A stretch of 64,000 bases of DNA from an uncultured Alphaproteobacteria bacterium (GCA_934277435.1 CAKQUE010000001.1:385957-449956); one strand, 5' to 3'. Positions 7,546 to 60,854 are shown, counted from the stretch's first letter. The notes: generated by a model not told the origin, from the letters alone. A program made the numbers and translations.

Positions 7546-7887
7546 ATGATTGAAATGCCGGAAAATCTGGTGGAAATGGCCTTAAAAACTATGGGCGACC
7601 GCTGGAAAGTAATGATTATTCAAGAATTGATGGACGGCACCAAACGCTTTGGCGAAATCAAAAAAGAGCTTGGCGATATAACGCAGAAGGTTTTGACTTC
7701 TAATTTGCGTGCGTTGGAAGAAAAAGGAATTTTAATCCGTACCGTATATGCGCAAATTCCGCCGAAAGTTGAATATACACTGACTAATTTGGGCTATAAT
7801 TTGAAGCCGGTGCTTGATTCTATGCGCGCTTGGGCCGAAGAATATTATAACCAGAATATGAAACCTTTGTTGCCGGATATGGCTTAG
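7546..7887 (+). CDS. HxlR-type winged-helix transcriptional regulator
   Basis: 113 aa. HxlR signature (RW..MII.EL..G..RF.E) followed by a wing. Confidence 0.8.
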   Translation: MIEMPENLVEMALKTMGDRWKVMIIQELMDGTKRFGEIKKELGDITQKVLTSNLRALEEKGILIRTVYAQIPPKVEYTLTNLGYNLKPVLDSMRAWAEEYYNQNMKPLLPDMA

Positions 7888-20421: not shown

Positions 20422-21027
20422 ATGACTGATTTATTAGGTAAATCTGATACAAAACATATTGAAAAACCAAACACCAAGCATTTGGAAAATAAAGAAACAA
20501 AAAAGCTGGGAATGAGCGATACTCGTGCAAAGAAAATTAAACATTCTTACAATGTTAAAGATGCAGAAAACGCGTTGCTTTTGAAAACTAAAAACGGGGA
20601 CATCGTTATTGAAATGTTTCCAAATGACGCTCCAAACCATGTTGCTCGTATAAAAGAACTTGTGCGTGACGGTTTTTATAACGGCTTAAAATTTCACCGT
20701 GTAATAGATGGTTTTATGGCGCAAACCGGAGATCCGCGCGGTAATGGTACCGGTGGCAGCGGTAAAAAGCTGAAAGCCGAGTTTAACCGCAATCGTCATA
20801 CTCGCGGCACGGTTTCTATGGCGCGGGCGATGGATCCGGACTCTGCTGATAGCCAATTCTTTATCTGTTTTGCTGATTGTCCATGGCTTGATGGCCAATA
20901 CACCATCTGGGGACAGGTGACTTCCGGTATGGAATATGTTGACCAAATTAAGCGAGGTTCCGGTTCAAACGGAATGGTTGCCGAACCGGATGTGATTGTG
21001 TCTATGTCTGTCATCGCAGATATATAG
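20422..21027 (+). CDS. ppiB: Cyclophilin-type peptidyl-prolyl cis-trans isomerase
   Basis: FHRVIDGFMAQTGDP and WLDGQYTIWGQV motifs. N-terminal basic extension. Confidence 0.9.
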   Translation: MTDLLGKSDTKHIEKPNTKHLENKETKKLGMSDTRAKKIKHSYNVKDAENALLLKTKNGDIVIEMFPNDAPNHVARIKELVRDGFYNGLKFHRVIDGFMAQTGDPRGNGTGGSGKKLKAEFNRNRHTRGTVSMARAMDPDSADSQFFICFADCPWLDGQYTIWGQVTSGMEYVDQIKRGSGSNGMVAEPDVIVSMSVIADI

Positions 21028-21400
21028 GGGAACTCGTCTAATGGTCTACTACTTTTAACTTTTTGTGCTTGTGTACCTCATTGTACACGGCGCAAAAAAG
21101 TTAATGCGTATTAGCCTCATTATCCAAGTCCCTGCGAGTTTGTGCCGGTTGCAGCAATAAGCAGCCGGTTTTTCTTATGTACTAGTTTGTACACTGCGCA
21201 AAAATCTTACTTCGCATTGAGCTCATTATCCGAGTTTCTTAAGAGCAAGAGCAATGCGAATAACGGCACATCTAAAGGCAATTTACGTTCGTTCAGAAAA
21301 TTCATGTACTTCTATGTACACTAGGATTTTCTTCAGAACTAGAGTTGCCTTTATCTGTACCATTATTCGCATTGCTTTATATGATTGTCACTGTTTTGTT
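21028..21400. repeat. Array A of the intergenic repeat family (about 3 units)
   Basis: Each unit has TGTAC-N6-TGTACA, then GCGCAAAAA..., then the hairpin GCCGGTTGC-loop-GCAGCCGG plus a T-run. Near-identical to 32190..32470. It starts with GGAACTCGTCTA directly after the ppiB stop. Confidence 0.85.
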
Positions 21401-21456
21401 TTTAGTTTGTGCCGATTGCAATAAAAATCTTAAAGAATGTTTTTTGTACAAAATTC

Positions 21457-21526: not shown

Positions 21527-22243
21527 ATGGAACATGTTAATCATTTTGCCGAGACTAATGCCGATGACAAATTAAAATCTATGATTTTTGATTGTATATC
21601 TGGTACATCGCTTGGAGTTTATGATGCCGAAAAGGTTATTTTACAGCTGCCGATTTGTGCCAGAGCTCCGCTTTTGGCCTTGTATTTTATGAGAATACGA
21701 GGAATTGAGAAGGATTGTACAGATAAACATCTTCGTTTTGTGCTGCTGTTGTCTTTGTTTCAGGTCGCCGTGCGGATTTTTGAACGCCATGTGCTTTACG
21801 GTACTTCAAATCGCTTTATTGGAACTGACCGTTTTGATAACAAAAATGTGAAACAGCTTATTACAAATTTGGGAATAAGACAGCAAACCAACACTTTTGA
21901 GCTGGATTCGGTTATTGACAACAATCCTTATTACAAAGAGGTTTTGTATGAAGTGAAGCATAATAATGCTCTCCTCAACTGCAATGTAAAAGCGACAATA
22001 TCTGATTATTTTGTAAAGAAAGTTATGCAATTTGTTGCTTTGTATGCTCAGGATGTGCGAACTTTTTATTCTATGGATGTGCAAACTTTTTATGTGCGTA
22101 CTAATCCATTGGTTTGCGATGAACAATTGTATAAACAATCTTGGATAAAATTCAAGCTACTGACTGTTAAAAGCTTGTTTTTCGTGAATGATTTGAGTGA
22201 AGAAGAGTTTGCTGAATTTTTTGAAAATTACAGCTTGCGTTAA
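21527..22243 (+). CDS. Hypothetical protein
   Basis: ORF with an ATG start at 21527. The 21464 start offered by the ORF track is a TTG. No recognised family. Confidence 0.5.
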   Translation: MEHVNHFAETNADDKLKSMIFDCISGTSLGVYDAEKVILQLPICARAPLLALYFMRIRGIEKDCTDKHLRFVLLLSLFQVAVRIFERHVLYGTSNRFIGTDRFDNKNVKQLITNLGIRQQTNTFELDSVIDNNPYYKEVLYEVKHNNALLNCNVKATISDYFVKKVMQFVALYAQDVRTFYSMDVQTFYVRTNPLVCDEQLYKQSWIKFKLLTVKSLFFVNDLSEEEFAEFFENYSLR

Positions 22244-26037: not shown

Positions 26038-26232
26038 CGACCTTTGGCAGTTATTTTGGCATAAAAACAAAAAATATGCACAAATTTTATAAATAATCGC
26101 ATTTTTTTTATTTTTGTTATTGAAAAATTTACAAATATTTCTTAAATTACCAACTGTATTAGTTGTTATGCAATTAAATAAACGTTTGTAGAAATGCAAA
26201 CAAAATGTAAAAAACCATATGGAGAAAATAAA

Positions 26233-26697
26233 ATGAAAAAACTTTTAAGTTTGTTCTGCGCACTTGTTGCTTTGTCTGGCTGCTCTACTTTTGGCGCTGA
26301 CGGTGGCTTGTTCAGCGGTGCTGACTGCGAATCAAGATTGGCTCGTGACTTTGTAGAAAATACAACAGACACAGTATTCTTCGCATTTGATAGTTCTTCT
26401 TTGTCTGCAGAAGCTCAAGCTGCTTTGGATACTCAAGTTGCTTGGTTGAAGAAACATGACGATGTAAACGTTATTGTTCAAGGTCACTGCGATGACAGAG
26501 GTACTCGTGAATACAACTTGGCTTTGGGTGAACGCCGTGCCAACGCTGTAAAACAATACTTGGTATCTCAAGGTATTGAAGAAAGCAGAATTTCTACAAT
26601 TTCTTACGGTAAAGAAAGACCAGCTGTTTTGGGTAACAACGAAGCTGCTTGGGCTCAGAACCGTCGTGCAATTACAGTTGTTAGCGCAGCTGAATAA
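26233..26697 (+). CDS. pal: Peptidoglycan-associated lipoprotein Pal
   Basis: Lipobox LSGC. OmpA-like domain (NVIVQGHCDDRGTREYNLALGERRANAV). GGAG RBS before the ATG at 26233. Confidence 0.9.
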   Translation: MKKLLSLFCALVALSGCSTFGADGGLFSGADCESRLARDFVENTTDTVFFAFDSSSLSAEAQAALDTQVAWLKKHDDVNVIVQGHCDDRGTREYNLALGERRANAVKQYLVSQGIEESRISTISYGKERPAVLGNNEAAWAQNRRAITVVSAAE

Positions 26698-26855: not shown

Positions 26856-27839
26856 ATGGAAACAAAATTTGAAACTCTTTCTCACGATGCTGTTTTGGGA
26901 GAAATGAAAATGTGGTATGACAACGGTTGCAGAAAGTACGCAGATTATGAAACGCTGTGGCAAATGTTCCGCACTGTTGTTGCCTCAAGCAGTTATGGTT
27001 CTTCCGAATTTGGCGGTCCGGTTTGGATTATGGATTTCAGCCTTGCAAATCTTAAAAAACTTTTTCCTGATAATCCGTGGCTGGAAGCTATGGAAAAGGA
27101 AAAAAATATGTACGTCACCGCTGGAAAGGCTCTAAATCTGGCTAAATTTTCTGAGTGGTTTAAGTTCCGCGCAGAAAGTATGACTAAATTTTTGGGTTTG
27201 GGCAATGTTATCATTAAATATGAAACTGTTGCCGGTGAAGCGGTTATTTTGTATAGCTGGGGTGCTTTTTTGGATGCCGTAGAAAGTGTTGTTAGTGGCG
27301 TGGTAGAACGCCTTAGCTTTGGGTTGATGATTAAGTGGAATTTTTCTTTGCGCGAAAGCGAAGCCGTACGCAAAGGTAAGTTCTTTACCTGTCTAAACAC
27401 CGCTACTATGGTCAAAAAATATCCATGCGTTTCAGAAGATGCGGACGATGTTAAACACAGCGATGTTTATGGCGATGTTTATCGCTTAAAGCATTTTAGT
27501 TTGACAAAGGGCTATGTTGTTCCCGAGACTATTCCTGAAAAAATCTTGATGTTGGTCATCAATGATTTGATGGAAGGTATCGCTGAGGGATATGGCTGCG
27601 GGTTGGATAACAGTAGTTTGGTTTGTCCTTATCCCCACCTAAAGTATGATAAGTATCTTGACAGCATCGGAAGATGTGGACACCACTTTAAAACGACAAC
27701 CGATGTGTTCCGCTGGAGAAGAAAAGACTTTAGCATCGAGGAAATCAAAGTCGACTTGCCGAAGATTGATGAAAAATACGGCGAATTTTGGCATCGTCAG
27801 TTCCCGCCGAAACAAAATTGGCGCGAATTGAAAGACTAA
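26856..27839 (+). CDS. Hypothetical cytoplasmic protein inserted between pal and cpoB
   Basis: 327-aa ORF with no signal peptide and several Cys pairs. Flanked by strong terminators on both sides. Confidence 0.55.
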   Translation: METKFETLSHDAVLGEMKMWYDNGCRKYADYETLWQMFRTVVASSSYGSSEFGGPVWIMDFSLANLKKLFPDNPWLEAMEKEKNMYVTAGKALNLAKFSEWFKFRAESMTKFLGLGNVIIKYETVAGEAVILYSWGAFLDAVESVVSGVVERLSFGLMIKWNFSLRESEAVRKGKFFTCLNTATMVKKYPCVSEDADDVKHSDVYGDVYRLKHFSLTKGYVVPETIPEKILMLVINDLMEGIAEGYGCGLDNSSLVCPYPHLKYDKYLDSIGRCGHHFKTTTDVFRWRRKDFSIEEIKVDLPKIDEKYGEFWHRQFPPKQNWRELKD

Positions 27840-30001: not shown

Positions 30002-30969
30002 TGATTTATGGCAGCTTGTCGGAAATCGCAGATAAGTTTGAAGTGTTTTTGTTTGACGCCTATGGAGTGTTTTGGAACGGTGACGGATTTTATAAAAACA
30101 GCAAAGAAACAATGCAAAAACTGGTGGCGGAAGGGAAAACCGTGGTTGTTGTTTCTAATGCGACATTGCTGCACGATGATATGGTAACTTCGTATCAGCG
30201 TAAAAATCTGCTTGAGGGCCGAGATTATACTTTTATAGTAAGTTCCGGAGAAGTTCTCAGACAAGATTTAATAGATAAAAAGCTGAATTTTGTCGGCAAT
30301 AAATTTTATACTATCGGAGCCAAACATGAAAAGATGTTTGCCGGCACAATTTATCAATCGGTAGAAAATTTGAACGATGCCGATTTTGTGTTTTGCGGCG
30401 TACCATTTTTGATGGCGGAAGATATAGCAAAATATCCAAAGTACAAACACAGTTTTTTACCGGCGAAAGCAGATGAAAACGGCGATATTGTTTTTTGGGA
30501 TAGCACAATAACCGAACCGTTTGTAGAAATTGTAAAAAAGGTGACCAAGTTGAGATTGCCTGCGCTAAATGCTAATCCGGATTATTTAGCGCAAGAAGGA
30601 CATCCTTTGGCAACGGAAAAAGCTCCGCAGTTTGTGGTGCGCAATGGCACAATCGCCGAAATGTTGCGGCAAAGGGGTAGTAATGTTATTGAATATGGTA
30701 AGCCGCACGCAAATATTTATGATTATGTTTTTGCAAAACTGCAGAAAATCGGCAAAATGACGGATAAAGAAAAAATATGTATGGTTGGAGATACGGTGCG
30801 GACAGATATCAAAGGCGCTGTAAATTCTGGTATAGCCCCCATTTTGTGTGTGCAAACCGGAGTTACCGCGCTTGAACTTTATAAGGGGAATACGGTTAAA
30901 AACCTTTGCGAAAGCGAAAATATTGATGTAAAACAAATAATAGAGATTAACAGCGTCGGAGGAGAATGA
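30001..30969 (+). CDS. HAD-superfamily hydrolase, subfamily IIA-like
   Basis: N-terminal FDAYGVFW nucleophile motif. C-terminal GDTVRTDIKGA (motif IV region). Confidence 0.65.
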   Translation: MIYGSLSEIADKFEVFLFDAYGVFWNGDGFYKNSKETMQKLVAEGKTVVVVSNATLLHDDMVTSYQRKNLLEGRDYTFIVSSGEVLRQDLIDKKLNFVGNKFYTIGAKHEKMFAGTIYQSVENLNDADFVFCGVPFLMAEDIAKYPKYKHSFLPAKADENGDIVFWDSTITEPFVEIVKKVTKLRLPALNANPDYLAQEGHPLATEKAPQFVVRNGTIAEMLRQRGSNVIEYGKPHANIYDYVFAKLQKIGKMTDKEKICMVGDTVRTDIKGAVNSGIAPILCVQTGVTALELYKGNTVKNLCESENIDVKQIIEINSVGGE

Positions 30970-31403
30970 TGGCGTTTGAGTTAGTGCCGGGGTTGGCGGC
31001 AAAAGATTATGTGACCGATTTGAAATTGTGCCGAGTATTGTTTGAAGATAACAAATATTATCCGTGGATTTTTTTGGTTCCGATGAAAGAAAATACCAAA
31101 AATATGACCAATTTAAGTATGGATGAACGGTTTCAGCTGATGAGAGAAATTGCGCTGGCCGAAAAAGTTATGATGTCGCTGTTTCCGTGTGACCAAGACA
31201 ATGTGGCGATGATTGGTAATATGACGCCTCAGCTGCATGTGCATGTGGTTTGCCGCAAAAAAGGCGACCCAGATTGGCCTGGGACGGTTTGGAATTCGGC
31301 AACAGCCAAATATGAACCGGCGGAAAAAGAAAAAATTATTGCAAGAATCCGCCAAGCAATCAACGAAGAAATACAAAATCCAATTTATCAAATTTCTAAA
31401 TAA
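30966..31403 (+). CDS. HIT-family protein
   Basis: Histidine triad HVHVV. About 145 aa. Overlapping start/stop (ATGA) with the upstream gene. Confidence 0.7.
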   Translation: MMAFELVPGLAAKDYVTDLKLCRVLFEDNKYYPWIFLVPMKENTKNMTNLSMDERFQLMREIALAEKVMMSLFPCDQDNVAMIGNMTPQLHVHVVCRKKGDPDWPGTVWNSATAKYEPAEKEKIIARIRQAINEEIQNPIYQISK

Positions 31404-31415
31404 AAGGACATAAAA

Positions 31416-32189
31416 ATGAGTAGAGTAATTACTTTAATGCCGGTTAGATTAGCCGCAACCAGACTGCCTAACAAACCTTTGCGCGTGATTAATGGTAAAA
31501 CTATGGTACAGCGCGTTTATGAAAATGTAAAAAAAGCATTGAACACCGATATAGCCATTGCTGCCGGTGACCAAGCTATTGTGGACGAATGCACAAAATT
31601 TGGCGCTAAGGCAATTTTAACCGACCCAAATTTGCCAAGTGGCACGGATAGAATTGCCGCCGCTTTGAAAGAGCTTGATCCGGACGGTTCAAAATATGAT
31701 ATTGTTGTTGATTTTCAAGGCGACAATATCAATGTTGACCCTAAAGTTACATTGCCATTGATAGAAATGGTGGAACGTACCGGCTGCGATATTGCCACCT
31801 GCGGTATGCTGATTAAAACCGAAGAAGACAAAAACAATCCTAATGTGGTAAAAATCATTATGGGACTGAAAGAAGGCGAAAAAGAAGCTCGTTGTCTATA
31901 CTTTACCCGTGCGACGGCGCCTTATACTCGCAATCCGGAAAAATGCCCGAATCAAGATTTATATTATCACATCGGTATTTATGTTTTTAAAGCAGCTTCT
32001 TTGCATAAAATGGTTTCACTTCCTACTGGTGTGTTGGAAAAACGTGAGGCCTTAGAGCAACTGCGCGCTCTGGAAAATGGTATGGAAGTTCGCGCTATGT
32101 TGGTTGACAACATTAAACTTGTTCCCGAAGCTCCGGCGGATATAAATACGGAAGAGGATTTGGCGAATGCTCTTCCTTATATAAAATAA
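31416..32189 (+). CDS. kdsB: 3-deoxy-manno-octulosonate cytidylyltransferase (CMP-Kdo synthetase)
   Basis: MPVRLAATRLPNKPL start and typical KdsB length and motifs. Confidence 0.9.
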   Translation: MSRVITLMPVRLAATRLPNKPLRVINGKTMVQRVYENVKKALNTDIAIAAGDQAIVDECTKFGAKAILTDPNLPSGTDRIAAALKELDPDGSKYDIVVDFQGDNINVDPKVTLPLIEMVERTGCDIATCGMLIKTEEDKNNPNVVKIIMGLKEGEKEARCLYFTRATAPYTRNPEKCPNQDLYYHIGIYVFKAASLHKMVSLPTGVLEKREALEQLRALENGMEVRAMLVDNIKLVPEAPADINTEEDLANALPYIK

Positions 32190-32470
32190 TGGAACTCGTC
32201 TAGCTGGTATCTGCTGGGGATTTTTGCGCTCGTGTACTAATCTGTACACGTCGCTTAAAAATTCCGTCGCATCTACGCACGCTATCCGAGTTTCTGAGAG
32301 TTAGTGCCGGTTGCCTTAAAGCAGCCGGTTTTTCTTGTGTACCACTTTGTACACGTCGCAAAAAAGTTAATGCGTATTAGCCTCATTATCCTAGTTTCTG
32401 CAAGCTTGTGCCGGTTGCAGCAATAAGCAGCCGGTTTTCTTATGTACTAGTTTGTACATAGCGATACCAA
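32190..32470. repeat. Array B of the intergenic repeat family (about 2.5 units)
   Basis: Starts with GGAACTCGTCTA immediately after the kdsB stop. Units share TGTAC-N6-TGTACA, GCGCAAAAAAGTTAATGCGTATTAGCCTCATTATCC and the GCCGGTTGC hairpin plus T-run with array A. Confidence 0.85.
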
Positions 32471-32480
32471 TACAGGTTGC

Positions 32481-32520
32481 AACAAAAAAAACAGCCCTTA
32501 ATTAAAGGACTGTTTTTTTG
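32481..32520. terminator. Bidirectional terminator
   Basis: A-run, then the hairpin acagccctt / aaggactgt, then a T-run. Confidence 0.65.
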
Positions 32521-32525
32521 TTAGA

Positions 32526-33023
32526 TTACGCTGGTGCTTCTGCACCTTCGCTTGTTTCAGCAACCGTGGCTGGATTTTTTTCTTCGGCTTTACGCTCGGA
32601 AGAATAAATTCCATAGTCGCGCGCTCCGCTGACAGTCAAAAGAATGCTTAGAGCAGACAAAAGTCCCTCCCATTCTACTGGTCGAACATTAAAGTATGGA
32701 GATACAATAAAATTATTGCTATACCCCAGAACCAAAATCCAGCCAATAGCAGGAATCCAGAACTTGTTACTCAACTCACGACCACCAGCCGTCGCGTTAA
32801 TAGCTTTTTGCAACGGACCTAAATAGCGGAATCTCTGCAACACTATGTCGCGGGCGCCGCCAAGTCCAATCACAATACTAAATGTCAAAATCAACTGATA
32901 CCAGTCGATAATTCGACAATCAAAATACGGAGCCAATGCGCAGTTGTGAAAGAAACCATACGCAATAACCACTCCTAACGCTGGAATCCACATACGGGAT
33001 TTCTTGACTTTAATCTTAATCAT
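32526..33023 (-). CDS. Small membrane protein with internal 2x (2-TM) duplication
   Basis: Repeats WIPALGVV...SPYF...GARD and WIPAIGWI...SPYF...GARD. Downstream of the pilin genes on the same strand. Confidence 0.5.
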   Translation of the reverse strand: MIKIKVKKSRMWIPALGVVIAYGFFHNCALAPYFDCRIIDWYQLILTFSIVIGLGGARDIVLQRFRYLGPLQKAINATAGGRELSNKFWIPAIGWILVLGYSNNFIVSPYFNVRPVEWEGLLSALSILLTVSGARDYGIYSSERKAEEKNPATVAETSEGAEAPA

Positions 33024-33138
33024 ACTAAAAAAAATATAAAGATTAATAATTTTCTTCCTAAGATTTAAAATACGCCATATGGCCTATTTTGTCAAGGGAT
33101 TATTGTTAATTTGTCTATATTTTTTAGCATTTTCTGTT

Positions 33139-33774
33139 CTAAAATGCCCAAATCGCAATGGCGCAAGTGTTGTTTGTACCGCAGTTGCATGCGTTGGCTA
33201 TAGTTGTTATGGGCATATCCTTATTATAGCAAATAGCAAAATCATTGTCTGAAGTTTCGCATTTTGCGGCTGAGGAATATTGGGTATAGCCTGAAATTTT
33301 AGAAGTACTGTTTGGATTGTTTGAACCGGAGGCAACCAAAATAGTTTTGGGACCGCCCAAACCTTTACTCAAAATTTGGATGCAAGCATCGCGGGACAGA
33401 GATTTCAGCTCAACTATAACACCTTTGTCTGTTGGGGTTAAACCATAAAGTTCTTTTGCCGAACCAACTCTAACTTCACCGCCGTAAACGTGAGTAACCT
33501 TGCCGCTGGAGTTAATCATTTCATCTGGAATAATTTTCATTTTTTTTGCAGATGTGTTATTTAAGCCGGTGTATTTACCGCCTTGACGCAACCCGATGCT
33601 TTTGGCGTTGGCAATAATAGTGCCGATTTGTTCAACAATGTTGTTAACCTTGTAGGCGTCCATGGCTTTACTGAAACCATTGATGCCGCCAACGCTCAGC
33701 ACGCCGATAATTGCCAGCACACCCAGCATTTCTATCATTGAACGACCTTGTTCAAATTTATTGATATTCATCAT
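33139..33774 (-). CDS. Type IV pilin (paralog 1)
   Basis: Prepilin leader ...FEQG^RSMIEMLGVLAIIGVLSVGGI with Glu at +5. C-terminal disulfide loop CNCGTNNTC. Confidence 0.8.
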   Translation of the reverse strand: MMNINKFEQGRSMIEMLGVLAIIGVLSVGGINGFSKAMDAYKVNNIVEQIGTIIANAKSIGLRQGGKYTGLNNTSAKKMKIIPDEMINSSGKVTHVYGGEVRVGSAKELYGLTPTDKGVIVELKSLSRDACIQILSKGLGGPKTILVASGSNNPNSTSKISGYTQYSSAAKCETSDNDFAICYNKDMPITTIANACNCGTNNTCAIAIWAF

Positions 33775-33789
33775 TTGCAGAATTCCTTA

Positions 33790-34398
33790 TTAGTTAAATT
33801 TTAAAGCTACAATACAAGAGTTAGAAGATGAGCAGTTGCAGCCTTTTGCTGCGTCAACAGGCGACATTGGGGTTTTCTCTGCCGGTAATATGGCATATTT
33901 TTTAGCAGCATTAATATCTCCAGCACCATCATCAAGTAAATCTGTCTTAAAATTTTGTTTGTCACCAACGCCAATCATTTGGAAAGTAGAACTCTTGGTG
34001 CCCCAATCTTGAGTGGCTAAATAAATACAAGCAACTTTAGGCAGTCCATTATAAGATATTATATATGACATATCTGTAGGTGTAATTTTTATATTTCCGT
34101 GGAATAGATTTGTTAAAGTTCCATTGCTAGCATTGGCAATCGCTTCTTTAGGAATAGCGCCGAATTTGATGGCAGCTTTGTTGTCTAATCCGTCATAAGA
34201 CGCAACTTCGGAACCGACAGCAGAAAGTTTTGCGGCAATAGCGTTGATTTGTTCATAAGTCTGGGTGATTTTATAACGTTCAAGCATTTGCGAAAAGGCG
34301 GCTATGCCCCCCACGCTTAAAACGCCGACAATCGCTAAAACACCAAGCATTTCTATCATAGAACGACCGGTCATATTCGATAATTTATTATAATTCAT
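33790..34398 (-). CDS. Type IV pilin (paralog 2)
   Basis: Same leader, G^RSMIEMLGVLAIVGVLSVGGI. C-terminal CNCSSSNSC. AGGAGG RBS before the ATG at 34398. Confidence 0.8.
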   Translation of the reverse strand: MNYNKLSNMTGRSMIEMLGVLAIVGVLSVGGIAAFSQMLERYKITQTYEQINAIAAKLSAVGSEVASYDGLDNKAAIKFGAIPKEAIANASNGTLTNLFHGNIKITPTDMSYIISYNGLPKVACIYLATQDWGTKSSTFQMIGVGDKQNFKTDLLDDGAGDINAAKKYAILPAEKTPMSPVDAAKGCNCSSSNSCIVALKFN

Positions 34399-34472
34399 AA
34401 TATCCTCCTGTTTGCTATTTTTGTAACACGTATGCAAGCTGGCGTCAAGCTATATTAAGGCGGAGATAAGTA

Positions 34473-35732
34473 TCAAATTTTTGGCAGCGTCACCATAAAT
34501 GTAGAGCCTTTGCCAAATTTGCTGTCCACAGTGATTTTGCCGTTATATTTTTGCACGATGTCTTTAGCCAGAGCCAAGCCCAGACCAAATCCTCCGCTTT
34601 GGCGATTGCGGCTTTTATCGGCGCGGTAAAAACGTTCAAATATATGGGGTATATCCTCATTTTTTATGCCGCGGCCTTGGTCAGAAACCTCAATTTTCAG
34701 ATTATGTTCATTTTCTGAAACCTTGAGGGAAATATCTTTGTCGCTGGGTGTGTATTTTAGCGCGTTGTCAAGCAATATGGTCAGCAAACGTTCCAAATGC
34801 TGTGCCGACATTTTTATTTTTGCTTTTGCGGGGCAAATCACTTTGATTGGATGTTGCCGTTCTTGATGAACCGTATTCAAACGTTCGGTCAAAGGTTTGA
34901 TGATGTTGGCAATATCGATTTCTGAAACCGCGGTGTTTTTAGTGTTTTCCAAACGAGTAAGTGCCAGTAGGTTTTCAATAAGTTCGGACATATTTTTGGT
35001 TTCATCGCGCATAACCTGCAGCGCCTTGGCATTTTGCGGCTGCTGTTGCAATATTTCGGTGTAAGTCAGCAATACGCTGAGAGGAGTTTTTAGCTCGTGT
35101 GAAGCGTCGGAAACAAATTCTTTTTGTTTGTTATAGGCCTCCTGCAAAGGTTTTACGGCGTTGTTAGAAATTAAATAAGCGGTGAGAATCGAGAGCAAGC
35201 ACAAAAGACCAACCAAAATTAAACCATAGCTTTTATAGCGGTGAGTGACATAAATATACGGTGTGACATTGAGCAAAGCAACTACTTGATATTTGTCGCC
35301 GCTGGGTTCATCAATCCAGCTTTGGGACAAGGCTACAAAGCGCCAGCGCTCGCCGTTGTTTTTGATTTTAACTGTTTTGATTTCTCCGTCTTTTCCCTGC
35401 CACTTGGTCATTTTTTGCGTCAGAATATTACCGGTTTCTCCGGCTGGTTGTTCTAAGCGGCGCATTTGTCCGTTTACAAAGCCATACGAGAAAAAATGCA
35501 GGGCGTTATTGCTTGCGGCGACGGCTATTCTTTCCGGCTTGAATGCGAGTTCGGCGGCTTCTTGCTTAAATTCAAAAACTTCTTCTTGCAAATAGTCATA
35601 AAGGCTTGAAGATATTACATTTTTAGAAATAATGCGATAGGTGGCGTATCCGCCCAAAAATATGAGCAAGGACACGCTGAATAATATTAGCGAATAGCGA
35701 ATTAAAAGTTTATGTTTTAAGGCGTCTATCAT
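34473..35732 (-). CDS. Sensor histidine kinase (PmrB/BasS-like)
   Basis: Two TM helices flanking a periplasmic domain. H-box HELKTPL. G-boxes in the HATPase_c domain. Confidence 0.85.
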   Translation of the reverse strand: MIDALKHKLLIRYSLILFSVSLLIFLGGYATYRIISKNVISSSLYDYLQEEVFEFKQEAAELAFKPERIAVAASNNALHFFSYGFVNGQMRRLEQPAGETGNILTQKMTKWQGKDGEIKTVKIKNNGERWRFVALSQSWIDEPSGDKYQVVALLNVTPYIYVTHRYKSYGLILVGLLCLLSILTAYLISNNAVKPLQEAYNKQKEFVSDASHELKTPLSVLLTYTEILQQQPQNAKALQVMRDETKNMSELIENLLALTRLENTKNTAVSEIDIANIIKPLTERLNTVHQERQHPIKVICPAKAKIKMSAQHLERLLTILLDNALKYTPSDKDISLKVSENEHNLKIEVSDQGRGIKNEDIPHIFERFYRADKSRNRQSGGFGLGLALAKDIVQKYNGKITVDSKFGKGSTFMVTLPKI

Positions 35733-36418
35733 TTGAGTTCCAGCATATATCCAATGTTTTTGAGCAGGTTTATTTGGATGTTATCTTGCCAGATTTTAAG
35801 CTTTTTGCGCAAATTGTAAATATAAGAATCCAAATTGGCGCTGCTGATTTCGGGATTATTGCCCCAAACTTTGTCAAAAAGTGTTTCGCGCAAAATAGTC
35901 TTATCATGGTTTACAAAAAGAATCTGCAATATTTTAAATTCGGTTTTAGAAAAATTAAGCGTTTTCTTGCCGTTGCTCAAGGTATTTTGCGCGCAATCCA
36001 AAACATAGCCGTCGGCTTCAAACAAGCTGTCGACATAAGGTTTGTTTTTGCGGCGCAGCACAGCGTGAATACGCGCTTTTAGCTCGCGGATTTCAAAAGG
36101 TTTGGTAATATAATCATCGGCCCCAACTTCCAGAGCCTGCACACAATCATCAAGCTCGGATTTGGCGGTTAAAAATATGATGCCGCCGCTGTAGTGTCCT
36201 TTTTTGATATCTCTAAGCCATTTGCATACTTCCAAACCAGAAAGCTCAGGCAGCATCCAATCCAAAAGCACCACATCATATTGCGAAGTTCCGTATTTAA
36301 TTTCTTCAATAGCTTCGGTTCCGGTTGTTGCCAAATTTACCTCATAACCGTCAATTTCAAGCAGGGTTTTGATGCCTTGTCCTAAATTAATATCGTCTTC
36401 AACCAATAAAATATGCAT
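35729..36418 (-). CDS. OmpR-family response regulator (PmrA/BasR-like)
   Basis: Receiver domain (LLVEDD...D...LDWMLP). Winged-helix C-terminus. Overlaps the kinase start. ATG at 36418 with a GGGAGA RBS. Confidence 0.85.
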   Translation of the reverse strand: MHILLVEDDINLGQGIKTLLEIDGYEVNLATTGTEAIEEIKYGTSQYDVVLLDWMLPELSGLEVCKWLRDIKKGHYSGGIIFLTAKSELDDCVQALEVGADDYITKPFEIRELKARIHAVLRRKNKPYVDSLFEADGYVLDCAQNTLSNGKKTLNFSKTEFKILQILFVNHDKTILRETLFDKVWGNNPEISSANLDSYIYNLRKKLKIWQDNIQINLLKNIGYMLELK

Positions 36419-36466
36419 AAAGTTATCTCCCAAAACATAGTTTATGTTGTTTTTATTAAGAACTCA

Positions 36467-36540: not shown

Positions 36541-36579
36541 AGCGTTTTAATTTTGCCAATGTACCAACAGGAGGACAAA

Positions 36580-36858
36580 TTGAAGATAAAAAGAATAAGT
36601 ATAAAATCATCAACATTAATTTGCTTGGTTGCCCTATACTTTGCAACGGTTTTAAACTTGTCGTTTTGGTGCTACATAACACATTATATCCAAATTGACA
36701 ATCCGATGATGTTGATGTTTGCTTTTTCCCTTGGCATATTTATATTTGTTCCGCTGTATGCGTTGTTCAATCTTTTGATTTGTCCTCATGTTGGTAAACT
36801 GATGACAATAATATTACTTTTAGGTGGCGGTTGCTGCCAATTATCAAATGTTAGCTGA
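36580..36858 (+). pseudogene. N-terminal fragment of an EptA-like phosphoethanolamine transferase (truncated remnant)
   Basis: The 92-101 aa membrane ORF aligns by eye to the EptA N-terminal TM domain (KRISIKSS..LNLSFW.....ILLLGGGCCQ versus E. coli KRPSLNLL..LNIAFF...FILVGAAAQY). There is no room for the sulfatase domain. AGGAGG precedes a TTG start at 36580. Confidence 0.45.
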
Positions 36859-36969: not shown

Positions 36970-38115
36970 CTAGTCTTTGATTTTGCGGCTCATAAACAGC
37001 AAGTACAGCGCGCATAATATCATTACGGCGACAGCTCCGTGCTGGTTGTTGACAAAGTCGGAGGCAATACCCATCAACAGCGGAAATACGGTGCCGCCGA
37101 AAATACCCATAATCATCAAGCCGGAAACCTCATTACCGTGACGCGGCATGGTTTTGAGAGCTTGCGAAAAAACAACCGGAAAAATATTTGCGTTGCCGTA
37201 GCCAATGCAGGCAATGCAAATATACAGCAGTTCTTTACTGTTGAATAAAAAGATGCCGATAAGGGCAAAAAACATCAAAATCACACTGCCTAAAAAATAT
37301 TTATGGTTGGAGTATTTGGCTAAAATATAGGCGCCGCTAAAACTGCCAATGGTGCGGAAAAAGAAATATATGCTAGTGGCATAGCCGGCTTGTTCCAAAG
37401 TCCAGCCCAGTTTTTGCATAAGCAGTTTCGGGGTGGTTACATTAGTGCCAACGTCAAGCCCAACATGGCACATCACCGCCATAAAACAAAGAAAAATTGT
37501 TCCGTTGCCTAAAAGCATGGCACATTCTTTGAAGCCCGAAGTTTTGCCAACTTCCGTTTCTTCTATTTTTTCGCGTGACAATAAAACAAACGCCAAGACA
37601 GTTTCGGCTAAAAAGAACGGAAACAGCACTTGCCATTTGCCAAAGTGAATAGCACCCCAGCCGGCGAGAATCGGTGCTACAAATGAAGCTGTGGCTTTAA
37701 CAAACTGTCCAAAGGTGAGGGCGCTGGACATTTTATCTTTGGCGACAATGTTCGAAACAAGCGGATTTAGTGAAACTTGCATAATGGTGTTGCCAATACC
37801 CAATAAAGAAAATGAAATCATAATGATTATCATATTGTAGTCAAATATCGGCAAAAGCAAAGCCAGCATAGTGATGGCCAAGCTCAGCAGCACGGTTTTA
37901 CGGCGTCCGATTTTGTTCATCAGCAGACCTGTCGGAACTGAAAAAATCAAAAACCAAAAAAATGTCATTGATGTAAACAAGTTTGCCATTGTGTCGGAAA
38001 GGGCAAAATCGACTTTGACATAGTTGGTGGCTATGCCGACAAAGTCGACGGCGCCCATGGCAAAAAAGGCGAACATAATTGGTATCAGTTTTTTGAACAT
38101 ATCCGTTTTAATCAT
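36970..38115 (-). CDS. MFS transporter (sugar/FucP-like)
   Basis: 12 predicted TM helices. MFS motif NKIGRRKTVL. Adjacent to a sugar kinase gene. Confidence 0.8.
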   Translation of the reverse strand: MIKTDMFKKLIPIMFAFFAMGAVDFVGIATNYVKVDFALSDTMANLFTSMTFFWFLIFSVPTGLLMNKIGRRKTVLLSLAITMLALLLPIFDYNMIIIMISFSLLGIGNTIMQVSLNPLVSNIVAKDKMSSALTFGQFVKATASFVAPILAGWGAIHFGKWQVLFPFFLAETVLAFVLLSREKIEETEVGKTSGFKECAMLLGNGTIFLCFMAVMCHVGLDVGTNVTTPKLLMQKLGWTLEQAGYATSIYFFFRTIGSFSGAYILAKYSNHKYFLGSVILMFFALIGIFLFNSKELLYICIACIGYGNANIFPVVFSQALKTMPRHGNEVSGLMIMGIFGGTVFPLLMGIASDFVNNQHGAVAVMILCALYLLFMSRKIKD

Positions 38116-38135
38116 GGCTATTCTCCTATTACAGG

Positions 38136-38993
38136 TTATTCATATTTTGGCCAAGCGCCGCTTTTGGTGCAGACAAACGCCGCAGTGGCAACAGCTTGTT
38201 TGTGGGCTTCGCGCATGGACTTTCCGGTTAGCAAGCCCATAACGAATCCGGCAGAAAAAGAATCGCCGGCGCCAACTGTGTCGGCAACTTTGACTTTGGG
38301 CGTATCCAAATAAGATTTTTCGCCGTTGGCCGCATAAACAATGCTGTATTTTTCTCCGGCAGTAAAAATCAGATAGCGCAAATCGTATTTTTTTATAAAC
38401 CAATGGCAAATGTCTTCATCAGAGAGATTGAGTTCAAATAGTTTTTGCACTTTAACCATTTCTTCGTCATTGATTTTGAAAACGTTGGCTTCTTGCAAAA
38501 GCTCGTCAATCAGTTCTTTGGAAAAATAGTTGCTGCGCAAATTGACATCAAACAACTTAAAGGCTTTTTGCGGTGCGTGTTTTAAAAGAGTCAGAACCGA
38601 AGCTCTGGTTTGCGGCGAGCGCAGCGCCAACGTGCCAAAACAAACGGCGTCGGCTTTTTCCACCACGGCTATTTCTTTTGGTGTGACGGCCAAATGGTCC
38701 CAAGCAACACCCTCAACAATGGTATAAGTCGGAATACCGTTGTTCAGCTCAATTTCAACAACGCTGGTGGGGTAGTCGTTGCGTTCCAGCACATGGTGAA
38801 TGTGGCTTTTTTCCAGTTCAGCAATGATTTCGTCGCCCAAAGCGTCTTTACCAACCGCGCTGATGGCGTAACCGTCGGCGCCGAGCTGAGTGGCGTTATA
38901 AACAAAATTAATCGGCGCTCCGCCGGCACGCTTGCCTTTTGGCAGCATATCCCACAGAAGTTCGCCGATTCCTACAACAACAGGTTTGCTCAT
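38136..38993 (-). CDS. PfkB-family sugar kinase (fructokinase-like)
   Basis: GG motif and DTVGAGDSFSAGF signature. 285 aa. Confidence 0.85.
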   Translation of the reverse strand: MSKPVVVGIGELLWDMLPKGKRAGGAPINFVYNATQLGADGYAISAVGKDALGDEIIAELEKSHIHHVLERNDYPTSVVEIELNNGIPTYTIVEGVAWDHLAVTPKEIAVVEKADAVCFGTLALRSPQTRASVLTLLKHAPQKAFKLFDVNLRSNYFSKELIDELLQEANVFKINDEEMVKVQKLFELNLSDEDICHWFIKKYDLRYLIFTAGEKYSIVYAANGEKSYLDTPKVKVADTVGAGDSFSAGFVMGLLTGKSMREAHKQAVATAAFVCTKSGAWPKYE

Positions 38994-39084
38994 CTTTGCC
39001 TCCTTTGCTAATAATATAGTTTTAATTTAGCATATTTTAAGTAAAAATCCAATAAAAAAAGGCGGAGAAAAACACCGCCAAAAT

Positions 39085-39660
39085 CTAAAACAAGCCGCCG
39101 TCAATGCGCCATGCGCCGTCATAAACCAAATGAAACACCGCGCAATTTTCTATTTTGCCAAAATCAAAGTGCAGATAGTTCAAAAGACTGCCCATTGTGC
39201 CGCCGTGAATAGCTACGCCGATGACGTTATAAGGTGTTTGCCTCAGGTCTTCTATTTGTCGCCAAACTCTTTCGAGCGCGGCTTGTTTGCTTTCGCCGTC
39301 GGGGTAGGCGATGTTCCAAACTTCTGGATTGCTCCAGTTGTTGTAGACATCAGGATATTTTTCGGCGAGTTCTGATTGCAGCATACCTTCGGCGCGGCCA
39401 TAAAAACATTCTTGTAAATCATCTTTGATAATAAGCGGACAATGCAGTGTTTTTGCCACGGTTTGCGCCGTTTGCACCGCTCTTTTAAGCGGGCTGGAAA
39501 AAATGATATCTAAATTGCACTGAGCCAGTTTTTGCGCCAAAGCGATTGCTTGTTCTTGGCCTTTGGCTGTCAATTCCATATCTATGCCGGAACCTTGCTG
39601 CCGGTGTTGCAGGTTAAATTCGGTTTCGCCGTGGCGGAAAATATAAAAATCTTTACGCAT
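39085..39660 (-). CDS. Histidine phosphatase family protein (phosphoglycerate-mutase-like)
   Basis: RHGETEFN catalytic motif. About 191 aa. Confidence 0.85.
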   Translation of the reverse strand: MRKDFYIFRHGETEFNLQHRQQGSGIDMELTAKGQEQAIALAQKLAQCNLDIIFSSPLKRAVQTAQTVAKTLHCPLIIKDDLQECFYGRAEGMLQSELAEKYPDVYNNWSNPEVWNIAYPDGESKQAALERVWRQIEDLRQTPYNVIGVAIHGGTMGSLLNYLHFDFGKIENCAVFHLVYDGAWRIDGGLF

Positions 39661-39663
39661 GGA

Positions 39664-40143
39664 TTAGAGCGCTTTCAAGCCGACTTTGTGCGCCACAATG
39701 CGGAAAACTTTTTCTTCATCTTCCGGAGTTAATATGCCATAAAGCGGCAGACAAAACGGGGTAAAGTCGCCATTGTGTTTTTGTAAAAAGTTGTATTTGT
39801 AATCAATGCCTTTTTTAGGAATAAGCACAATTACACGGCGTTTTTTGCCGCAACAAGTAACCATGCGTTCTTCGGCAATTTCAATATCTTTCCACGCCAC
39901 CGGATTGGTATGGTCAATTTTGATGGTGTCGTCGGTGATAACCGCCATAATTTGTTTGGTGGCGTATTTATAAATCCAAATTAAAAGAGTTGCCGTCAGC
40001 AGCCCAAACAAAACCTGAAACTCCCACCAATAAGCGTAGGATTTGCTGCAGAACAGACAAGAACAAAGTGCCGCCAACACAAGGATATTCAAGACTAACC
40101 AAACATAGTTTTTTTTGAAATGGTAATAAATAATTTCATTCAT
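39664..40143 (-). CDS. Hypothetical membrane protein
   Basis: Two N-terminal TM helices and a soluble C-terminal domain of about 90 aa. Only 3 nt before the phosphatase gene, so likely co-transcribed. Confidence 0.5.
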   Translation of the reverse strand: MNEIIYYHFKKNYVWLVLNILVLAALCSCLFCSKSYAYWWEFQVLFGLLTATLLIWIYKYATKQIMAVITDDTIKIDHTNPVAWKDIEIAEERMVTCCGKKRRVIVLIPKKGIDYKYNFLQKHNGDFTPFCLPLYGILTPEDEEKVFRIVAHKVGLKAL

Positions 40144-40253
40144 AATAGCCGCCTTTCAAATATTTTATCCAAAACAAGTATATATTATTTTGCGCGTGAA
40201 GGTAAAGTAAAAAATGAAGCTGTTTTTCGATAAATTTATTAATTTAAGTATAT

Positions 40254-40284
40254 AAAAAAATACCGTTTTGCAACGGTATTTTTG
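40254..40284. terminator. Terminator downstream of pilin paralog 3
   Basis: ataccgtt-ttgc-aacggtat hairpin with A-run and T-run flanks. Confidence 0.7.
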
Positions 40285-40314
40285 TGAACTAATGTAATTT
40301 TTGCTGTAAGGAAA

Positions 40315-40974
40315 TCAGTAGTATTTCCACAAAATAGAGCATGTGTTACCTTTATCGCAGTTGCATGCTTTAGCAGCTTGAGTAACTTGCATCGGTACAG
40401 CTAATGTTGTATTTCCTGGCATAGCTATAGAATCACCATCTTCTTTTTTTGCTGAGGCAGAGCCAATATAAACTGTATCCAAGCTGTCATCGCGTGCAGT
40501 TGGAGCAGCAGTTGCTGTGGCATTGCCTTTTACTTCGATAGCAATCAAACCAGAAGAATAGCCAGAACCCCAGTCGTTGGTAGCTAAAGTGATGCAAGCT
40601 TCACGTGATAATTGTGTGAATTCAATTACGAATGCTTTTGTGTCGCCATCCACAGTACTGTCAGCTTCATTGATAAATACAGGACCGTTAAACGCATTTG
40701 TCAGAGTTCCGGCAGTGGCATCTGTAACCAATTCGTCTGGTACAACACCCATAGATACAGCATTGGCATTGTCTAAATCTGTATAAGTATTTTGCTGAGC
40801 ATACAAGGTTTTGATGTTGGCAACCAACATAGAAACATTATCAGAAACTTTATTTGTTTTGAATTTGTTCATAGCTTTTGAATAGCCGGCAATACCACCA
40901 ACAGACAATACACCGATGATGGCCAATACACCCAGCATTTCAATCATGGAACGACCAGATTCATTTACTCTCAT
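40315..40974 (-). CDS. Type IV pilin (paralog 3)
   Basis: Leader MRVNESG^RSMIEMLGVLAIIGVLSVGGI. C-terminal CNCDKGNTC. AGGAGA RBS. Confidence 0.8.
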   Translation of the reverse strand: MRVNESGRSMIEMLGVLAIIGVLSVGGIAGYSKAMNKFKTNKVSDNVSMLVANIKTLYAQQNTYTDLDNANAVSMGVVPDELVTDATAGTLTNAFNGPVFINEADSTVDGDTKAFVIEFTQLSREACITLATNDWGSGYSSGLIAIEVKGNATATAAPTARDDSLDTVYIGSASAKKEDGDSIAMPGNTTLAVPMQVTQAAKACNCDKGNTCSILWKYY

Positions 40975-41214: not shown

Positions 41215-41291
41215 TGGCGCGCTCCGGGCGATTCGAACGCCCGACCCACAGCTTAGAAGGCTGTTGCTCTATCCTGCTGAGCTAGGAGCGC
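41215..41291 (-). tRNA. tRNA-Arg (anticodon TCT)
   Basis: Cloverleaf folded by hand. Acceptor GCGCUCC/GGAGCGC. Anticodon loop CUUCUAA. T-loop UUCGAAU. Encoded CCA. Confidence 0.9.
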
Positions 41292-44486: not shown

Positions 44487-44903
44487 ATGAGCATAGCTAA
44501 CAATTTTAGAACCGTGTTAAAATACGCTCAGAATAAGGAGTGTATGATGGTTGTAGCTGATTCTGACTATATTGTTTTATTGGGTAGTAAAATTGCCAGA
44601 TTGCGTAAAATGCAAGGTTTGAACCAGTTTGAATTTGCTGATAAATGCGGTAAAATGGTTAATACTATTTCTAAAATTGAAAGAGGTATTGGCGATCCGC
44701 GCTTGTCTACACTGATTAATATTGCCGAAGCTTTGAATATTTCAGTAACAGAGCTTTTGGATAGTCATTTTATTAGTCCGGCTATGAGCAGAATGACTGG
44801 TGCAGAAAATGTGGATTCTGCCATTGATGGTCTTTTGTTGCAGTGTGATGATGAAACTAAAGCTGTTGTATTGTCATTGCTGCAGCTGTTGGTGAAAAAA
44901 TAA
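44487..44903 (+). CDS. XRE-family helix-turn-helix transcriptional regulator
   Basis: HTH_3 pattern (LRKMQGLNQFEFADKCGKMVNTISKIERG). The real start is probably an internal Met. Confidence 0.65.
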   Translation: MSIANNFRTVLKYAQNKECMMVVADSDYIVLLGSKIARLRKMQGLNQFEFADKCGKMVNTISKIERGIGDPRLSTLINIAEALNISVTELLDSHFISPAMSRMTGAENVDSAIDGLLLQCDDETKAVVLSLLQLLVKK

Positions 44904-44965
44904 TCAAAGCAATTAATTTTTTTATAACTTTTTTACTCTGTCCCCAACTTTAACGATGAACCAGC

Positions 44966-45242
44966 TTGTGTCAAACCCGCTTTTTCGCGGCTTCTTATCC
45001 CTTGATACTTCACCAACAAAAAAAAGCCACCATAAAGGTGGCTTTACTGTTGGTGAGCTCGGTGGGATTACTCCACTTCGTTTCGTTCACTGCGCTCATA
45101 GGCATTGCCTACCGGCACACTCCCGTGCGCCTTTCGCTTGTGTCAAACCCGCTTTTTCGCGGCTTCTTAGCCCTTGATACTTCACCAACAAAAAAAGCCA
45201 CCATAAAGGTGGCTTTACTGTTGGTGAGCTCGGTGGGATTCG
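44966..45242. repeat. Tandem direct repeat (2 x ~102 bp) containing the tRNA-Lys 3' end plus flank
   Basis: 44966..45068 and 45141..45242 are near-identical. Each ends in tggtgagctcggtgggatt (tRNA 3' end) and carries the hairpin aaagccacc-ataa-ggtggcttt. Confidence 0.85.
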
Positions 45243-45297
45243 AACCCGCGACCCTTTGATTAAAAGTCAAATGCTCTACCGACTGAGCTACGAACTC
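45222..45297 (-). tRNA. tRNA-Lys (anticodon TTT)
   Basis: Hand-folded. Acceptor GAGUUCG/CGAGCUC. Anticodon loop CUUUUAA. T-loop UUCGAAU. CCA encoded. Confidence 0.85.
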
Positions 45298-60778: not shown

Positions 60779-60854
60779 GGGCGCTTAGCTCAGCTGGAAG
60801 AGCATCTCGTTTACACCGAGAGGGTCGGGAGTTCGAGCCTCTCAGCGCCCACCA
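60779..60854 (+). tRNA. tRNA-Val (anticodon TAC)
   Basis: Hand-folded. Acceptor GGGCGCU/AGCGCCC. Anticodon loop UUUACAC. T-loop UUCGAGC. CCA encoded. Confidence 0.9.

Follow-up and report, generated by a model that had tools for sequence, protein, structure and literature searches.

A Palindromic Repeat Array Downstream of kdsB in an Uncultured Gut Alphaproteobacterium: Probable Member of a REP/BIME-like Family of Gene Ends

Introduction

The kdsB gene (CMP-Kdo synthetase) of an uncultured alphaproteobacterium is followed by an array of palindromic repeats, array B, and a related array, array A, lies behind a PPIase gene in the same window (the whole 64-kb stretch of DNA that was analysed, with a G+C content of 40%). 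What these arrays are, and whether array B marks the border of acquired DNA, are the questions that the locus raises. An earlier note, made from the sequence alone, had taken the two arrays for near-identical copies and suggested that array B and a downstream tRNA-Arg gene may bound a genomic islet of about 8.8 kb. The observations set out below are best explained, with a probability of about 0.6, by array B being one locus of a dispersed set of non-coding mosaic repeats, REP/BIME/REPIN-like and specific to a clade of uncultured human-gut Alphaproteobacteria, in which the palindrome is kept as a DNA hairpin or cruciform.

Architecture of the Arrays

The junction GGAACTCGTCTA that had been reported directly after the kdsB stop and at array A is real. 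It has exactly two matches in the window, at 21029 and 32191 (shuffled sequences contain a mean of 0.07 matches, and two matches occur in 0 of 100 shuffles), and both copies begin 1 nt past a stop codon, the PPIase gene ending at 21027 and kdsB at 32189. The last codons of kdsB include TATAA (32180–32184), and its stop TAA occupies 32187–32189. Direct-repeat families with a period of 105–106 nt connect 21053–21239 with 32229–32463, and nhmmer profiles built from the units detect no further arrays in the window. The two arrays are not near-identical: their identity is about 75% in register, array A opening with palindrome P1 and array B with P2, and 91% over 110 nt is reached only by unit 1 of array A against unit 2 of array B. 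Judged by their sequences, they are mosaics drawn from the same modules (Table 1).

Table 1. Features of the two arrays and of the DNA between kdsB and tRNA-Arg.
Feature	Position	Strand	Basis or remark
Array A	21029-21240	+	3′ of PPIase gene (20422-21027)
Longer palindrome past array A	21245-21380	+	Arms 21250-21290 / 21336-21376, unlike other palindromes
Tract 100% identical to lineage L003, 1,371 bp	30932-32302	+	Right end in array B linker
kdsB (CMP-Kdo synthetase)	31416-32189	+	NCBIfam and Pfam matches
Array B	32191-32463	+	After kdsB; start GGAACTCGTCTA common to array A
Palindrome P2 of array B, full, 104-nt, imperfect	32191-32294	+	Fold and covariation
H1, portable module, putative intrinsic terminator	32306-32337	+	GCCGGTTGC-CTTAAA-GCAGCCGGT then TTTTTCTT
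Half unit of array B, T1 type	32330-32399	+	14-nt left-arm stub, centre 32338-32353, right arm
H2, putative terminator module	32410-32441	+	Loop AGCAATAA; terminator scan
Terminal centre site TGTACTAGTTTGTACA and right junction to unique DNA	32443-32463	+	End of array B
Putative two-way terminator hairpin of convergent 165-aa gene	32483-32519	.	Read from sequence; outside repeat
165-aa gene, two pilins, histidine kinase, response regulator	32526-36433	-	Domain matches and synteny
Pilin paralogues	33139-33774 and 33790-34437	-	Specific to window lineage
Histidine kinase; response regulator	34473-35732; 35729-36433	-	Ancestral neighbours with 165-aa gene
eptA N-terminal remnant	36553-36858	+	Full length 533 aa in L132-L135 (7548-9149)
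MFS, PfkB, His_Phos, 159-aa ORF, pilin	36970-40974	-	Only variable segment; 3′ side of tRNA-Arg
tRNA-Arg(TCT)	41215-41291	-	3′ end toward variable segment

The leader and the first "unit" of an array together form one 104-nt imperfect palindrome, in which an outer stem G(G/A)AACTCG/CGAGTTTC is succeeded by an internal TC/TC loop and then by several stems whose bulges are fixed. The palindromes have 35–41 pairs, fold at −30 to −45 kcal/mol and carry the tip TGTAC-N6-GTACA. That of array B has the outer stem GGAACTCG/CGAGTTTC and its centre at 32233–32248; it folds at −44 kcal/mol with 39 pairs, the two strands folding about equally. A linker of about 11 nt separates the palindrome from a hairpin, GCCGGTTGC-loop-GCAGCCGGT, and a T run, and in the later units a 14-nt left-arm stub and the centre site lead into a right arm only, a linker and another terminator module. 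Right arms fall into three types (T1–T3) and leaders into three matching types, the leader type agreeing with the first right arm in 11 of 11 arrays; the linkers AGAGTTAGT / CAAGCTTGT and the terminator loops CTTAAA / AGCAATAA combine freely.

Array B is accordingly composed of one palindrome (P2), one T1 half unit, whose right arm terminates in ATCCTAGTTTCT and whose counterpart left arm is absent, two terminator modules and a final centre site (32443–32458), and its right junction is identical in all conspecific contigs. Array A contains P1 (21029–21132), a terminator module H (21144–21169) and then a T3 half unit. The longer palindrome past array A keeps the common centre ATGTAC-N6-GTACAC, and this module also trails arrays in L090, L139, L141 and L168. 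The H modules are terminator-like. In H1 and H2 the stem is 9 bp long, 6 of the pairs being G-C, and the loop measures 6–8 nt, H1 with a T run in the terminator scan; the module of array A likewise has the features of an intrinsic terminator, all three lie on the strand of the upstream gene, and the H1 module recurs in arrays elsewhere.

No ORF was noticed by eye in the arrays, and a search of the window with Rfam 15 gave no match at the gathering score; with E up to 10, the region 32150–32560 yields chance-level matches only (at most 29 bits, far below gathering). The units might be imagined as tandem small-RNA genes, each with its own terminator and its own promoter, TGTAC-N6-GTACA being a CRP/FNR-type site at −41.5. 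A conserved segment of about 55 nt ahead of each terminator module is what such genes would have, as is TATTAG, read from the sequence 21 nt past the site in T1 units, but T2 and T3 units do not preserve the −10-like hexamer, the arrays contain no sigma-70-like promoter on either strand and match no Rfam family, and the supposed site is the tip of a covarying hairpin, which reads TGTAG/CTACA in L155. Small-RNA genes are therefore extremely improbable.

Two other kinds of repeat were considered and rejected. The window contains no Neisseriaceae DUS dialect and almost no Pasteurellaceae USS, as DNA-uptake sequences would require, and its over-represented 10–12-mers are A/T runs only. The variable parts of about 30 nt are not CRISPR-like spacers; they are three homologous types that recur in every strain.

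The window also has repeats of other kinds. A tandem duplication of 171–172 nt at 44964–45297 (44964–45069 / 45136–45240, 98–100% identical) spans the last 19 nt of tRNA-Lys(TTT) and a downstream hairpin, leaving a partial tRNA 3′ end at about 45051–45069; it adjoins an XRE/RstR-like repressor gene (44487–44903), and its sequence resembles an att-type scar. The 3′ end of tRNA-Val(TAC), together with 70 nt downstream, is repeated 200 nt further on (60840–60923 / 61040–61123, 95% identity, within 60779–61123), a second duplication that may be called att-like. A tandem 9/12/21-nt repeat, CTGTTCTTT and relatives, is present in about 5–6 copies at 8126–8194 in a minus-strand ORF (8032–9171) of very low GC3 (0.27).

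Conservation of the Palindrome

Twelve copies of the variants P1–P3 share 35 consensus pairs, 10 of them with compensatory double changes. With the diverged variants L155, L129a, L129b and L178 added, the seven-variant alignment has 36 pairs, of which 23 show compensatory changes, and 96.4% of its cells are paired; none of 500 shuffles matches the observed values, and slid controls give 3–9 compensatory pairs. The tip is altered to TGTAG-N6-CTACA in L155, and the outer stems are TCTTGCG, CCTGCG and GGGTTTG in L129a, L129b and L178, respectively. The unpaired TC/TC loops and the bulges are conserved across the palindrome variants, and conservation is strongest in the outer 12 nt and at the hairpin tip. 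A sub-palindrome within an arm is found in P2 only (CTAGC..GCTRG).

If the sense-strand RNA were under selection, G-U would be expected to be tolerated far better than A-C. G-U makes up just 4 of the 248 cells of the seven-variant alignment, and the single changes within variants, taken from 40 distinct copies, comprise 12 G-T and 10 A-C events; a strand-specific G-U excess, sought as a sign of RNA selection, is not found. The scarcity of G-U, the similar numbers of G-T and A-C changes and the equal folding of the two strands therefore point to complementarity at the DNA level, in a hairpin or cruciform, or to conversion between the arms, and the constraint looks like one of these with conserved unpaired positions. 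Palindromy could be kept through arm-to-arm conversion instead of selection.

Distribution and Placement at Stop Codons

The repeat is present in MAGs of uncultured human-gut Alphaproteobacteria (UMGS1578, HGM16763 and a Hadza MAG) and in two contigs that are apparently mis-binned. Among kdsB proteins with a name, the nearest belong to MAGs labelled 'Alphaproteobacteria bacterium'. At least 8 loci with real arrays occur in MAGs of gut Alphaproteobacteria; they are the 8 real cases among the 111 matches listed from a scan of genome contigs with a terminator-module pattern, the rest being mostly chance hairpins. A metagenome scan with a degenerate leader returned 41 stretches, 39 with real arrays, and one metagenome sample contains at least 14 arrays on contigs of similar coverage. 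Together, the MAG and metagenome loci represent about 21 distinct host genes among the matches listed, including ppiB, kdsB, pepF, fabH, rbfA and rlmE, and the upstream neighbours are conserved. The arrays are 91–444 nt long. No copies were found in plasmid, phage and viral collections (plasmid and phage by blastn).

The placement of the element is strict. It is co-oriented with the upstream ORF in 46 of 48 pattern matches, the exceptions, L162 and L176, being chance matches, and every real array is on the same strand as the ORF upstream. The palindrome starts 0–14 nt from the stop codon (1–9 nt at most loci), at four loci the ORF enters the leader and stops at the leader's GTCTAA, and some loci have one or two extra tandem leader stubs. 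Given this placement and the stops within the leader, the left border of the element overlaps the stop codon and often supplies it. TATA[AG] is present no more than 16 nt ahead of the palindrome at 9 of the 21 host loci (12 of 21 when stubs are counted), compared with 2 of the 58 gene ends of the window that have no element (p = 5.6e-5).

This placement bears on a functional 3′-UTR RNA, in which the stop-adjacent hairpin and terminator would be selected to stabilise mRNA or tune translation termination. REP sequences of E. coli within about 15 nt of stop codons are said, in work of 2015 by Liang, Rudd and Deutscher, to act in just these ways. The strict co-orientation, the distance of 0–14 nt from the stop with a terminator module next and the conservation of the element at 85–93% where the flanking genes are too diverged for blastn are all compatible with such an RNA. 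Against it stand the near absence of G-U and the equal frequency of G-T and A-C variants, a minus strand that folds equally well and half units that have no left arm. The DNA-element reading is preferred over a purely RNA one mainly because the pairs carry a DNA-level signature, and selection on the RNA is decidedly improbable as the explanation. The strict orientation and stop-codon rule is unexpected for purely selfish DNA all the same and hints at a function in the transcript.

Several features accompany the arrays. A second repeat family, a near-perfect palindrome of about 34 nt, CCAGTCATCCTAGGCACAAGGCCTAGGATGACTGG, is often beside them (L143 at about 7680–7720, L144, L148 and L172), and L178 has tandem copies of ATTCTCGGAATAAATCCGAGAATGAC. 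The window organism has several type IV pilin genes, and there are arrays no more than 1 kb from pilin genes in the window and in L003, L111 and L178. The metagenome contigs L123, L161, L159 and L170 terminate within arrays.

Polymorphism, Recombination and Rearrangement

In conspecific contigs encoding the same kdsB protein, the gene is followed by 1, 2, 3 or 4 units, with P1, P2 or P3 as the opening palindrome depending on the contig. Palindrome-type switching is also seen at ppiB, pepF, rbfA and rlmE. In L129, from a species whose kdsB is 83% identical, two diverged palindromes stand immediately past the stop; in its sister L128 the outer 23 nt alone are retained, the extra 270 nt being bounded by 12-nt repeats. 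The sequence of L128 looks like the result of an internal deletion between these repeats and not like an empty site.

The identical tract shared with lineage L003 ends within array B. To the left of 30932 the window and L003 are about 86–88% identical, and to the right of 32302 there is no homology, kdsB of L003 being followed by one unit and then by unrelated genes (pilin, ddl, mreBCD). Homology of L003 and L004 to the window begins only at 21440, at the edge of the array A region. L008 (about 78% nucleotide identity) lacks an array, its kdsB running straight into window 44783→41239, which is inverted there; the tRNA-Lys duplication lies near the end of this inverted block. As read from these alignments, the kdsB/array B junction is a true discontinuity, and both arrays are endpoints of recombination or rearrangement; we infer that the repeats are the cause. 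Window 21416–42189 is matched at 100% identity by contig L001 (ENA metagenome assembly ERZ27287485).

Other signs of exchange are scattered over the region. Protein identity to L003 is mosaic, genes at 99–100% lying amid genes at 82–88% (21527–22243, 26194–26697 and 30966–32189), which by sequence comparison suggests frequent homologous exchange between diverged lineages. The kdsB of L008 (5229–6002) differs from that of the window (31416–32189) at 64 of 774 nt (91.7% identity), yet the proteins are identical; the neighbouring proteins are only 67–90% identical, and a complete lack of amino-acid changes beside so many silent ones is unusual. A 327-aa gene without a Pfam match (26856–27839), between OmpA-like and BamD-like genes, is missing from L003 and L004 and 43% identical in L008, an indel polymorphism.

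These polymorphisms can be set against the possibility of a non-autonomous mobile element (REPIN, PATE or MITE-like), of which a folded single-stranded DNA hairpin would be inserted 3′ of TATAR by an HUH/Y1 transposase or a comparable enzyme acting in trans. Insertion of IS200/IS605 elements takes place 3′ of a short target and leaves no duplication, and here TATAR is conserved at the left and no target-site duplication is evident flanking single elements or arrays. Insertion would also accommodate the Watson-Crick-only covariation with conserved bulges, the 14 or more copies in one sample (read as one genome), the presence/absence polymorphism between L129 and L128 and the tandem leader stubs, which suggest repeated events at one site. 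However, about 1 Mb of related contigs, looked over unsystematically, showed no HUH/Y1-type enzyme, and neither a transposase nor a recombinase was seen within 2.5 kb of the 7 arrays inspected or among the window ORFs scanned. Orthologous loci are occupied across species, L128 resembles a deletion rather than an empty site, and the element is absent from phage, plasmid and viral collections. Insertion by such an enzyme is on the whole unlikely and the mobility of the elements is unproven; the occupation of the same host genes across species also fits long residence with selection, not transposition.

The Segment between Array B and tRNA-Arg

The genes that had been read in this segment are all there: three PilS/Bundlin pilins, a histidine kinase, a response regulator, an EptA N-terminal remnant, an MFS transporter, a PfkB kinase, a His_Phos phosphatase and two unknown ORFs. 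The kdsB neighbourhoods of relatives (82–86% protein identity) have almost nothing in common with the window, and synteny was instead read from homologues of the histidine kinase and PfkB. Loci with histidine kinase homologues of 77–80% identity contain, in order, a 109-aa gene, tRNA-Arg(TCT), two small ORFs, a full-length eptA, the response regulator, the histidine kinase and a homologue of the 165-aa gene; past the 109-aa gene, L135 has L36, a 184-aa gene and ettA. Since the order from tRNA-Arg to the 165-aa gene is conserved in relatives, the segment has an ancestral backbone, and the genes at its two ends are ancestral as well. The whole 8.8-kb segment is kept in six conspecific contigs. 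Peculiar to the window species, against these loci, are the two pilins between the kinase and an inverted 165-aa gene, the decay of eptA, and the block from MFS to the pilin (36970–40974) beside tRNA-Arg.

Composition gives a divided answer. Over 32.5–41.2 kb the G+C content (0.37–0.47) and codon usage are within the range of the window, contrary to an islet of this size, but 36970–40143 deviates. The four genes there (MFS, PfkB, His_Phos and the 159-aa ORF) have a GC3 of 0.487 against a mean of 0.395, the highest four-gene run in the window (permutation p = 2e-4), and they are not present at the related loci L132–L135. This is the only part of the segment with both the composition and the absence from relatives expected of an island, and the same four genes, together with the eptA remnant and the two-component pair, recur in L178/L179 (identities of 70% for the kinase, 86% for PfkB and 89% for MFS). 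From this comparison, the block is a variable segment common to some lineages and not a private acquisition; a smaller islet at 36970–40974 is possible. The 3′ end of tRNA-Arg has no repeat of 12 nt or more in 31.9–41.15 kb, no att-like repeat was found, and no integrase or recombinase is found among the segment ORFs scanned.

An 8.8-kb horizontally acquired islet bordered by array B and tRNA-Arg would explain why the segment lies at the 3′ side of a tRNA gene, why its genes look accessory and why the neighbours of kdsB differ in L003 and L008. It is at odds with the ancestral order of tRNA-Arg, eptA, response regulator, histidine kinase and 165-aa gene, with a composition that is uniform apart from four genes, with the lack of an att repeat or integrase, and with the array being a dispersed repeat; because the array is found at about 21 other gene ends, array B is not an island border. 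What survives of the original proposal is the junction at array B together with a small variable block beside tRNA-Arg, and the 8.8-kb islet itself is very unlikely.

Variation within the segment is seen at three further places. The eptA remnants differ in length, 82–164 aa, among conspecific contigs and L178. A 105-aa ORF between the eptA remnant and MFS is deleted in the window and L001 and kept in L002 and L004–L007. The three pilin paralogues have a common 72-nt segment of 75–76% identity, which encodes the conserved N-terminal helix (33683–33754, 34304–34375 and 40892–40963).

Relation to Known Repeat Systems

REPINs are REP doublets that form hairpins, the clusters of which are mobilised by RAYT transposases, and some classes of REPIN have been co-opted as terminators (PMC3116915, PMC3337134). 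The family described here resembles them in having a hairpin of about 90–100 nt made of two inverted halves, complementarity that is kept while the sequence drifts, and dispersed extragenic copies that occur as singlets and higher-order clusters. It differs in a conservation pattern unlike that of REP doublets, highest at the outer 12 nt and the tip and not over a 25-nt REP in each arm, in the strict one-orientation placement at stop codons, in growth by right arms only and in having no known RAYT.

Like REP and BIME sequences, the repeats are dispersed, extragenic and modular, with a tandem number that varies between strains. BIMEs of enterobacteria are mosaics in which palindromes and linkers recur as modules in variable tandem number; they lie 3′ of stop codons, inside operons or at their ends, and their copy number varies between strains. 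The likeness lies in the few palindromic and linker modules, the variable tandem number and the position 3′ of stop codons. BIMEs alternate REP orientations and have short palindromes of 35–40 nt, whereas in the present arrays half units with terminator modules are repeated directly behind one long palindrome, and no sequence similarity is apparent.

Other elements offer looser analogies. ERIC/IRU, the Correia elements of Neisseria and Bru-RS1/RS2 of Brucella are imperfect palindromes of 100–150 bp in transcribed intergenic DNA, and they can carry terminators and promote rearrangements; Bru-RS1/RS2 are palindromic repeats of 103–105 bp in an alphaproteobacterium. Compared by description, these occur in both orientations, unlike the present family, and Correia elements are marked by TA duplications as well as by terminal inverted repeats. 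Of the features of a MITE, the present element has inverted ends, GAAACTCG/CGAGTTTC, with no flanking duplication. PATEs, which derive from IS200/IS605, are recognised as imperfect DNA hairpins with unpaired bases and insert 3′ of a short fixed target, in one orientation and without duplication; here, in contrast, the element has no linked TnpA gene and consists of one long palindrome instead of distinct left-end and right-end hairpins.

The attC sites of integrons and CALINs are folded imperfect palindromes of 57–141 nt just past an ORF stop, in fixed orientation and with conserved extrahelical bases. On this model a tyrosine recombinase acting on the folded hairpin at gene ends would swap the downstream DNA. 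The imperfect palindrome with conserved unpaired bases, its fixed orientation directly 3′ of ORF stops and the variation by lineage of the DNA downstream of both arrays recall attC sites. The outer boxes, however, are unlike RYYYAAC/GTTRRRY: in P1 and P3 the left end, GTCTAAT, agrees at 6 of 7 positions, and the right end, GAGTTTCTG (GTTTCTG), has pyrimidines at required purines. Moreover, the hosts (kdsB, ppiB, pepF, fabH, rbfA, rlmE) are core genes with conserved upstream synteny and not cassettes, right-arm-only units are atypical, and no integron integrase is seen near the arrays or otherwise known for them. We consider attC-like cassette sites very improbable.

The nearest concepts are REPIN clusters and BIMEs, membership in any of the systems compared not being established. 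The hairpin family of about 104 bases is so far undescribed, as judged against ERIC, Correia, Bru-RS, PATE and BIME by description only.

Proposed Mechanism and Significance

Taken as a dispersed DNA repeat of gene ends, the family may be pictured as follows. The founding module would be the 104-nt imperfect palindrome, maintained as a DNA hairpin or cruciform, which would abut or overlap the stop codon of a housekeeping gene in the gene's orientation, with a portable terminator next. Half units (stub, centre site, right arm, terminator) would be gained and lost, for which unequal or ectopic recombination among the modules is the simplest route. Arrays would expand and contract through unequal exchange at centre sites or terminator modules, and ectopic exchange among loci would swap palindrome types and occasionally join unrelated flanks. 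At kdsB, transcription would end at the first terminator module, H1, and the palindrome would form part of the mRNA's 3′ end, its outer stem having to be melted by a ribosome that terminates there. The repeated modules would make the gene end a hotspot for copy-number change, palindrome-type switching and the endpoints of recombination or rearrangement.

A bolder proposal is that an unrecognised hairpin-specific transposase or recombinase, distinct from REPIN/RAYT, IS200/IS605 and integrons, anchors the element on the TATAR stop codon of core genes, supplies the stop and the terminator, and exchanges or rearranges downstream DNA. This seems distinctly unlikely; if it were true, the arrays would represent a gene-end-targeted mobile or recombination system, and a cognate enzyme, if one exists, would be a new case of hairpin-guided DNA targeting.

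For the dispersed repeat itself, the combination of features is unusual: a long DNA hairpin kept through many compensatory changes, placement on core genes at the stop codon in a single orientation, and built-in putative terminators in arrays of variable length. The arrays break short-read metagenome assemblies of the clade and mark endpoints of recombination and rearrangement, so that they matter for strain typing and for the reading of synteny. They add a well-defined repeat family to a little-known clade of uncultured gut Alphaproteobacteria.
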